Below, one piece after another: positions 3,001 through 6,000 of a stretch of DNA of 64,000 bases. The notes under the pieces are model-generated. The model was not told the origin of the DNA and did not search any database. It saw only the letters and a program-made list of their open reading frames with translations. This stretch comes from Hormiphora californensis (lineage: Eukaryota; Animalia; Ctenophora): positions 1,488,001 through 1,552,000 of the forward strand of contig CM035362.1 of NCBI GenBank assembly GCA_020137815.1, read 5' to 3'. Both the position numbers and the translations under genes were made by a program. Each line of letters begins with the position of its first letter. Position 1 is the stretch's first letter.

Positions 3001-6000
3001 GTAAAACTTTCTATCATCTCTCTATACAACACTTTCTCGCTCTAATTCTATCCTTCTCCCTCTCTCTCTCTCCCTCTCTCTCCCTCTCCACCAAGATGAG
3101 TGCTGTCTGGCGGCACCGACCCGATCTGAAAAAACGGGGTCTGATGCCACCAGATCACCAGGATTATTAAGATGAACCCACAGTAGACAAATCAAGCAGA
3201 CTAGTGTGAGTGAACAATATTGAATAAATGGACAACATTTTGAACCTACCATGTACATGAAGACGTCCTTGATGACTTGCATGGACACAATATGAACCTA
3301 CCATGTACATGAAGACGTCCTTGATGACCTGCATGGACACTATATGAACCTACCATGTACATGAAGACGTCCTTGATGACCTGCATGGACACTATATGAA
3401 CCTACCATGTACATGAAGACGTCCTTGATGACCTGCATGGACACTATATGAACCTACCATGTACATGAAGACGTCCTTGATGACCTGCATGGACACTATA
3501 TGAACCTACCATGTACATGAAGACGTCCTTGATGACCTGCATGGACACTTTATGAACCTACCATGTACATGAAGACGTCCTTGATGACCTGCATGGACAC
3601 TATATGAACCTACCATGTACATGAAGACGTCCTTGATGACCTGCATGGACACTTTATGGTCCTGCCACTGGGTGTTCAGTACTGCCAGGAAGTCGTTGTA
3701 TAAAGATACCTCCACAGCTTCGCGGACCTGGGGGACAAGAAAAGGTTGGTAATGAAGTTACCCTTTCCTTGCCAGCCTTGATTTCGTAAAGAAGAGGGTG
3801 ATGGTAGGGACAAGAAAATGGAAGAAGTTGATAGGAAAGTGTTAGTCAATTGGGGGGGGGGGGGGACGGCTCGACGGGGGTGACAAATGATTGATATCTG
3901 TCTTTTCCAAATATAGAAACATTTCTACAGACCAATAATACGAGACAGAAATCTCTCGCAACTGACAAGAAGTGGGCGACAGTAATAACTGACAGATGGT
4001 AGAAATGGAGGTAAGAATTCTTTTCAATGAAGTAGCAAGACAAGTCATCAGAAATATTTTAGGAACAAATGAATGACATGATATAACAAGAATAATTGCA
4101 TTATGTATTCATAATGCGGTGTTTCCCTGCCCTTATTTAATACTGCATCAGCATGCGTCGACAGGATCAGTATCACAATATAAGCCACCGGCTTGGTCAC
4201 AATGTAATGTGAGATGCATGTGATATGTACTTCTCACATCGCTAACTCAAACTTAGTAACGAGCATTCGACAGTACCTAAGCCAAACACGCATTTCATCA
4301 ACCACAAAGTTCGACATCGCGAGTTAGCAGCGTCAACTACTAAACGTAACACGCTTCGCCGAACGGATTTTCTATAAGGAAACGTACACGGCTTTGTAGT
4401 TTCTGTCACAGTTAGTGCCGCGCACAACTCAGAGAAATAAGCGTCCTGACATCATATTTCATCAAAACAGTTATTTGATTTGATGAAGGAGCGCACTCGA
4501 GCGTTGTCAGGCGTTGTCCGTGACGGACGGACGGACGGACAGTTAGTTAATTACACAATCTGCTGATTTCTAAACCCTGAATGATCTTTTTAGCAAGTGC
4601 GTGCTAAAAACATCACCCGGGCAGGGACAAAAATGTTTCATTTCCCGTAATACTAGGATTTTCAACTCGTGTGTTATACGGGGTCTAAGCGTGTATACAA
4701 GTGTGGCTATTCCTCACCTCTTTCCGTAGGTGTTCCTCAATGACACTCCTCATCAGCTTGTACAACCGTGCACCGTGTTTGTGGAGGACAAGGGTGTAGG
4801 CGTTCCGATATAACTCCTCGTAACTTAGACCACCTGATATTATATAGGGGATTATTATATATAGGGGAGAGGGAGGGGAGACCAACTTAGAGGTCACCTG
4901 ATATAGGGGAGACCAACTTAGAGGTCACCTGATATAGGGGAGACCAACTTAGAGGTCACCTGATATAGGGGAGACCAACTTAGAGGTCACCTGATATAGG
5001 GGAGACCAACTTAGAGGTCACCTGATATAGGGGAGACCAACTTAGAGGTCACCTGATATAGGGGAGACCAACTTAAATAGGTCACCTGATATAGGGGAGA
5101 CCAACTTAGAGGTCACCTGATATAGGGGAGACCAACTTAGAGGTCACCTGATATAGGGGAGACCAACTTAGAGACCACCTGATATAGGGAGACCAACTTA
5201 GAGGTCACCTGATATAGGGGAGACCAACGTAGAGGTCACCTGATATAGGGGAGACCAACGTAGAGGTCACCTGATATAGGGGAGACCAACTTAGAGGTCA
5301 CCTGATATAGGGGAGACCAACTTAGATGTCACCTGATATAGGGGAGACCAACTTAGAGGTCACCTGATATAGGGGAGACCAACTTAGAGGTCACCTGATA
5401 TAGGGGAGACCGACTTAGAGGTCACCTGATATAGGGGAGACCAACTTAGAGGTCACCTGATATAGGGGAGACCAACTTAAATAGGTCACCTGATATAGGG
5501 GAGACCAACTTAGAGGTCACCTGATATAGGGGAGACCAACTTAGAGGTCACCTGATATTGGGGAGACCAACTTAGAGGTCACCTGATATAGGGGAGACCA
5601 ACTTAGAGGTCACCTGATATAGGGGAGACCAACTTAGTGTGCCACTCTGCGATGCAGTGTGTCACATATACCGCGTTAGTTAGTGAGATATGAAAAACTC
5701 CCTATAGCGGAGTTCTCTTCTGACTTCTAGAGTTCTGTTCTGACCTCAACAACTGACTGTTCTCCTCTATCTCTGCTCATATTACTATACAGTAGCTTAC
5801 AAGTGTTAAGTGTGAGTTCATGTGAGATAGACCTTTTACTTTGACCCAAAACAAAACCTTGTGCTTGAATTACTTTGTACTTTGTCTCATGAACCATGTC
5901 TGACCACGTACCGCCCCCCAATCCAACCCATACAAATGGTGGCTTCGGTGGGATTGTCAATGATGATCCTACCCCGACCCGTGTTGTTGACAGAGCAACA

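Follow-up and report, generated by a model that had tools for sequence, protein, structure and literature searches.

The window analysed here, the whole 64,000-nt stretch from the ctenophore Hormiphora californensis, carries on its minus strand the 5′ part of a cullin gene, in which the junction between exon 4 and intron 4 lies within a 52-bp minisatellite (Table 1). When the donor at 3613 is joined to the acceptor at 2335, the ten exons form 356 codons without a stop and all the introns are GT-AG; this open frame of ten exons confirms the acceptor proposed for intron 4 in the original prediction. The Pfam Cullin domain (PF00888) matches four of the five exons scanned, and exon 8 retrieves Cullin-3 from the PDB with an E value of 1.8e-20, against 7.7e-05 or weaker for other cullins. 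The nearest proteins cluster with the CUL3 proteins of Mnemiopsis leidyi and Bolinopsis microptera, to which the translation aligns without gaps at 90.7-91.0% identity (91% for the Bolinopsis cullin-3-B-like protein). Having a Cullin domain and being closest to CUL3, the gene is identified from its sequence as a ctenophore CUL3. MYM, the end of exon 4, is followed directly by DRVYVK in 11 of the 12 close relatives compared, the twelfth being a fragment of 282 aa in which this region is missing. More widely, the motif is present in 96 of 129 fetched proteins, and DR comes next in all 96.

Table 1. Coordinates of CUL3, its junction-spanning array and other elements in the window.
Feature	Position	Strand	Remarks
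CUL3, first ten exons	1..11897	-	356 codons, open; continues past the left end of the window
CUL3 exons 1-5	11897-11838, 10593-10512, 4833-4718, 3727-3614, 2335-2264	-	
CUL3 exons 6-10	2063-1975, 1419-1305, 906-727, 526-406, 120-1	-	
CUL3 exon 4	3614..3727	-	114 nt, phase 0-0, ends ...VFMYM; Cullin E 1.1e-05
CUL3 intron 4	2336..3613	-	1278 nt
CUL3 exon 5	2264..2335	-	DRVYVK...KEL; acceptor AG just before 2335
52-bp minisatellite, 8 copies	3241..3658	-	First copy includes the last part of CUL3 exon 4 with its donor
Authentic donor (donor 1)	3605..3613	-	First intron base 3613; sole donor giving an open frame
Seven identical downstream donors (2-8)	3241..3561	-	First intron bases 3561, 3509, 3457, 3405, 3353, 3301, 3249
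In-frame TAG	3506..3508	-	Met on read-through to donors 4-8
Imperfect 15-16 nt match to exon sequence	3225..3242	-	In register with the unit start
22-bp x 6 array, CUL3 intron 9	121-295	-	
Diverged extra copy of acceptor and exon 10 start	near 268-295		In CUL3 intron 9
31-bp array, CUL3 intron 2	4874-5637 and 9074-10187	-	54 acceptor-like copies
Inverted copy of the 31-bp array	10118-10187		
LTR-type element	5637-9073		Inserted in the 31-bp array
298-bp direct repeats of the LTR-type element	5637-5934, 8776-9073		Perfect alignment score
11-bp x 89 array	10857-11832		
Palindromic elements	18411-22330, 45280-46835		
49-bp x 16 array	22855-23631	+	
ORMDL exon	23604-23756	+	Pfam E 1.5e-17
Open 51-codon stretch	41031-41183		
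32-bp x 8 array	41164-41423	-	
32-bp x 9 array	48576-48864		

TRF describes the array as 8.0 copies of a 52-bp unit with 98% matches, no indels and a score of 808. On the minus strand all eight units read ATG/GTAGGTTCA, where the slash marks the junction, and the splice signal is intact throughout; both results agree with the original prediction of eight stacked donors made from the end of a CUL3 exon. A 20-mer of the unit has eight matches in the window, all within the array; 100 shuffles yielded no match at all. The end of exon 4 is repeated head-to-tail, with homogenised inner units and a diverged edge unit: compared with the exon-bearing unit, units 1-7 differ at 0-1 base and unit 8, the last, at three. 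The division of each unit into 39 coding nt and 13 further nt was right as arithmetic, but since the TATA "spacer" departs from the exon sequence at one base only, the duplicated piece is better taken to consist of about 45 nt of exon, starting from the His codon, and 7 nt of intron. The four bases that precede the coding 39 are TAAA in units 1 and 3 and TATA in most others. Just beyond the last unit lies the imperfect look-alike of the exon sequence listed in Table 1, whose anchored score was reached by 22 of 5000 random 25-mers of the window. It may be what seeded the first duplication, or else a ninth unit that has decayed.

The use of any donor other than the first would lead to an early stop. 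Donor 2 adds 52 nt, with a stop at codon 173 (2043-2041); for donor 3 the addition is 104 nt and the stop is at codon 164 (2322-2320); and donors 4-8, including the in-frame donors 4 and 7, all include the TAG at codon 160. The claim that every downstream donor breaks the frame or takes in a stop is thus borne out, with stops at codons 160-173 for donors 2-8. On these translations, only donor 1 yields the conserved CUL3 protein, and each of the seven others would truncate it. A coding role for the array was considered and is ruled out by the read-through stops at 3508-3506. Stops that lie upstream of several introns make a transcript a target of nonsense-mediated decay (NMD). As the stops reached from donors 2-8 are all upstream of several introns, such transcripts would be NMD targets.

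Tandem arrays are prone to assembly error. The array was sought in short-read data from twelve runs, all of them assembled contigs, ten of which contain part of the stretch and come from three studies. The contigs of eight of the twelve runs were compared with two stretches, with two units in each. Contig depth is not copy number, and the ratios given here were taken among the contig records listed. In sample S1, run X1 has a summed depth of 1596.6 over the unit and of 156.2 immediately beyond it, and in run X2 a unit contig of 82 nt stands at 698.1 compared with 78.3, a ratio of about 8.9 (both among the records listed); S1 may be the assembled sample itself, in which case it is not independent. 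Sample S2, from another study (run X6), has a unit contig of 82 nt at 2625 compared with 454.6-471.3, a ratio of 5.6-5.8 among the records listed, and also a contig that passes without any difference from the last unit to unique intron. In organism B, from the third study (5-6% of words), run X7 has a contig of 82 nt that spans 3578-3658 at a depth of 555.6, the exon 4 contig being at 66.5, and run X8 has two unit contigs, at 387.5 and 541.9, together with a go-back joint. As 82 is 52 + 30, we infer a unit closed on itself, for which this length is expected with 31-letter words. The junction within these loop contigs is TATA in X2, the exon-like TAAA in X6, and TAAA in one of the two contigs in X8. 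Two sets of contigs are uninformative for the array: those of organism B have gaps over unique intron and exon 3, and none of organism C (run X11) was placed on the stretches.

The depth ratios, roughly 6-9, fit eight copies, within the limit that contig depth is no copy number. The array is real, varies in composition from sample to sample and is common to a relative, organism B, because unit contigs occur at multiples of the flanking depth and with variant junctions. The single copy that the original prediction had named as its counter-case was not what the short-read contigs of S1, S2 and organism B contained. An array created by the assembler is extremely improbable and largely ruled out, given the unit-contig depths in X2, X6 and X7, the boundary contig in X6, the joint in X8, and the private variants carried by individual units. 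The unit of organism B has two other letters in 82, and the upstream part of exon 4 has at least three third-position changes (3680, 3686, 3692). A unit so nearly identical fits a recent common origin or homogenisation, and may also reflect constraint.

A different kind of contig was found in run X12, which is only guessed to be RNA. Its contig 9 covers 3613-3721 and 4728-4831 with intron 3 left out. A hand translation of the minus strand reads the loose end before 3613 as the start of exon 5. Exons 3, 4 and 5 are thus joined at homologous junctions, including that of donor 1. The contig has 14 other letters per exon (about 87% identity), and the listed changes are mostly in third positions; it is thus a diverged CUL3 that may lack the array. 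X12 therefore confirms the gene model and not the choice of donor in the array-bearing gene, and contigs of this kind lose rare isoforms, which NMD would also hide. X12 bears the same species label as X1, yet at about 87% identity its CUL3 contig points either to a different species under the label of X1 or to a second CUL3.

The window contains other arrays. Eight TRF rows, corresponding to seven arrays, have a period of at least 10, at least 6 copies and at least 90% matches, and the CUL3 donor array is one of them. The 49-bp unit copies the pyrimidine tract, the AG and the first codons of an ORMDL exon, placing 15 decoy acceptors before the real one. In CUL3 intron 2, the copies of the 31-bp array resemble the start of exon 3, and the array ends 40 nt from the real acceptor; there is also an inverted copy. 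The LTR-type element that interrupts this array has a zinc knuckle (Pfam E 7e-04) and a short target-site repeat, and is a recent insertion. The 32-bp x 8 array repeats a putative acceptor before an open 51-codon stretch, for which no Pfam match was found. The 22-bp array of CUL3 intron 9 contains a branch-point-like CTAAC 8 nt ahead of the acceptor, and the same intron has an additional, diverged copy of the acceptor and of the start of exon 10. The 11-bp array starts 5 nt after the donor of CUL3 exon 1 and is not derived from the junction. The 32-bp x 9 array has no clear splice junction. It ends about 16 nt short of a possible start codon, whose reading is, by eye, signal-peptide-like. There are also two large, near-perfect palindromic elements resembling foldback transposons, the arms being 1438 nt at 99% in one and 555 + 208 nt at 97-99% in the other.

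Besides the donor array, two further arrays abut CUL3 junctions, within 5 and 8 nt. Compared with random placement within introns, the four CUL3 arrays give a combined p of 0.0012, or 0.035 when the array that prompted the analysis is left out, under a crude null and in a post hoc test.

Minisatellites spanning splice junctions, with up to 25 identical silent donors, have been described in human (PMC1557585) and lancelet (PMC3087553, PMC3902484), and in most of these cases only the first site is used. Intron 7 of human F7 holds a 37-bp VNTR with five to nine identical donors, all of them functional, and F7 minigenes used only the most upstream intact donor in three cell lines (PMC1557585). The same paper reports use of the first site only for the LMNB2 (100 bp) and PDGF (81 bp) minisatellites, while in CBS intron 13 and in 6-16 (IFI6) two pseudo-sites are also used (PMC1557585). 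As in the F7 type, the first unit of the CUL3 array spans the exon-intron boundary and identical donors are repeated into the intron; eight copies compare with five to nine, and only the first donor gives the normal product. Unlike in F7, where 4 of 37 nt are exonic, the CUL3 unit is mostly exon (39-45 of 52 nt), so that each decoy carries the full exon-side context. The CUL3 array also differs from the human cases in that its host is a non-bilaterian.

In lancelets, arrays termed mirages are reported in Adh3, the globins BflGb6 and BflGb9, troponin C and PGBD5, as tandem copies of 5′ and 3′ boundaries with units of 10-160 bp, and splicing is reportedly undisturbed (PMC3087553, PMC3902484). 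Their inner units are described as homogenised, with an edge unit that drifts (PMC3087553). The CUL3 array likewise has near-identical inner units and a drifting edge unit, and the window resembles the mirage accounts in having donor-side and acceptor-side arrays in several genes of one marine invertebrate. Unlike the mirages of those accounts, the CUL3 array occurs in a ctenophore, and its unit is shared with a related organism. No junction-spanning array of a ctenophore was found in the literature searched, which left most subscription papers outside; for one ctenophore genome, 13% TRF repeats are reported, and junction arrays go unmentioned in 12 of the 13 passages retrieved (PMC8527503). 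From its structure, the CUL3 array can be assigned to an already described kind, the F7 IVS7 type or mirage. What it adds is modest: it is apparently the first array of this kind from a ctenophore, a relative also carries it, and it is one of a number of junction-linked arrays within the window. The anatomy and the truncating consequences set out in the original prediction stand, and its two alternatives, extra donors that are ignored or that feed NMD, are the right ones; its framing of the silent donors as a surprise finds no support, given the human and lancelet precedents.

We consider it likely that the array arose by a short slippage duplication across the junction and that, as in most of these systems, the spliceosome takes the first donor almost always, the seven others being silent decoys. 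On this explanation the array would be tolerated junk and not a switch. The first duplication may have come from misalignment between the exon and the imperfect 15-nt look-alike just past the donor. Growth and homogenisation would have followed by unequal crossing-over or slippage with drift of the outer unit, as suggested by the near-identical inner units and the drifting outer one. Position would decide between the donors: the functional donor that comes first after the exon would be preferred, as it is in human F7, and donor 1 may be helped by being transcribed first. The demonstrations of positional choice come, however, from mammalian cells and not from ctenophores (PMC1557585). Any leak to donors 2-8 would end in early stops and presumably be cleared by NMD. 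RNA folding was rejected as a basis of donor choice, since predicted accessibility is flat over the eight donors. The mean unpaired probability of positions -3 to +6 is 0.34-0.40 in two local settings, 0.30-0.36 in a third and 0.27-0.28 globally, with 0.24-0.46 for the nine donors of CUL3. The eight donors being identical in sequence and flat in predicted accessibility, only position separates them.

The decoys might instead be leaky, with donor 1 dominant and donors 2 and 3 taking a steady minor share that NMD destroys, as an unselected cost. Among the donors of the nine CUL3 introns, donor 4 is one of the weaker, with 6 of 11 matches to a U1 consensus (5-8 for the nine), and the downstream donors of the array are all intact, identical and, by prediction, equally accessible. 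Every alternative donor leads to an early stop, and the pseudo-site use in CBS and 6-16 is a precedent (PMC1557585). However, the same report has F7, LMNB2 and PDGF using the first site only, and the lancelet mirages are described as yielding no aberrant mRNA (PMC3087553, PMC3902484); a steady leak is thus unlikely. It is highly improbable that selection keeps the array as a rheostat, the number of decoys setting the share of CUL3 mRNA sent to NMD. The persistence of the array in two samples and a relative at similar depth ratios, and the integrity of all eight donors, would suit such a role, but homogenisation alone predicts intact donors, and the other arrays of the window, on acceptors or beside junctions of unrelated genes, speak for a mutational habit. 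A combination in which junctions are amplified genome-wide in this lineage and the array is also kept between species because its copy number tunes diversion to NMD is very unlikely.

A further route, that of Rogers and Hellsten, would make splicing self-correcting. The exonic CAG/GT, which is present inside units 1-7, would act as a donor in copy 1 and as an acceptor in a later copy, and use of a downstream donor would still produce normal mRNA, or else mRNA that carries an in-frame micro-exon of 27 nt. In the birth of an intron in ATP2A1, such an AG/GT duplication made a working intron in human cells, with 6-16% spliced (PMC3265369). The CUL3 unit likewise holds a duplicated exonic CAG/GT, but its duplication, unlike that of the ATP2A1 account, includes an existing donor at an existing intron. 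The unit was also found to lack the donor consensus and pyrimidine tract that belong to intron gain by AG/GT duplication. The site reads CAG/GTCATC and is weak as a donor; the unit AGs are preceded by 19 nt that are 47-53% pyrimidine, against 53-95% at the nine real CUL3 acceptors. No new intron was seen, nor any gap or 9-residue insertion in any of the relatives compared, and splicing that corrects itself in this way is scarcely credible here.

As it most likely stands, with the first donor taken and the others silent, the CUL3 array is one more junction-spanning minisatellite, and extends this habit to ctenophores. Its eight donors share 39-45 nt of exon context without a difference and are told apart only by position, which makes it a clean test bed. 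If copy number did set the dose of CUL3 through NMD, the array would switch a core ubiquitin ligase by repeat length, a rare arrangement. If donor 1 is strictly used, first-donor selection would appear to predate the bilaterians, and the array would be a natural test of such selection in one of the earliest-branching groups of animals.
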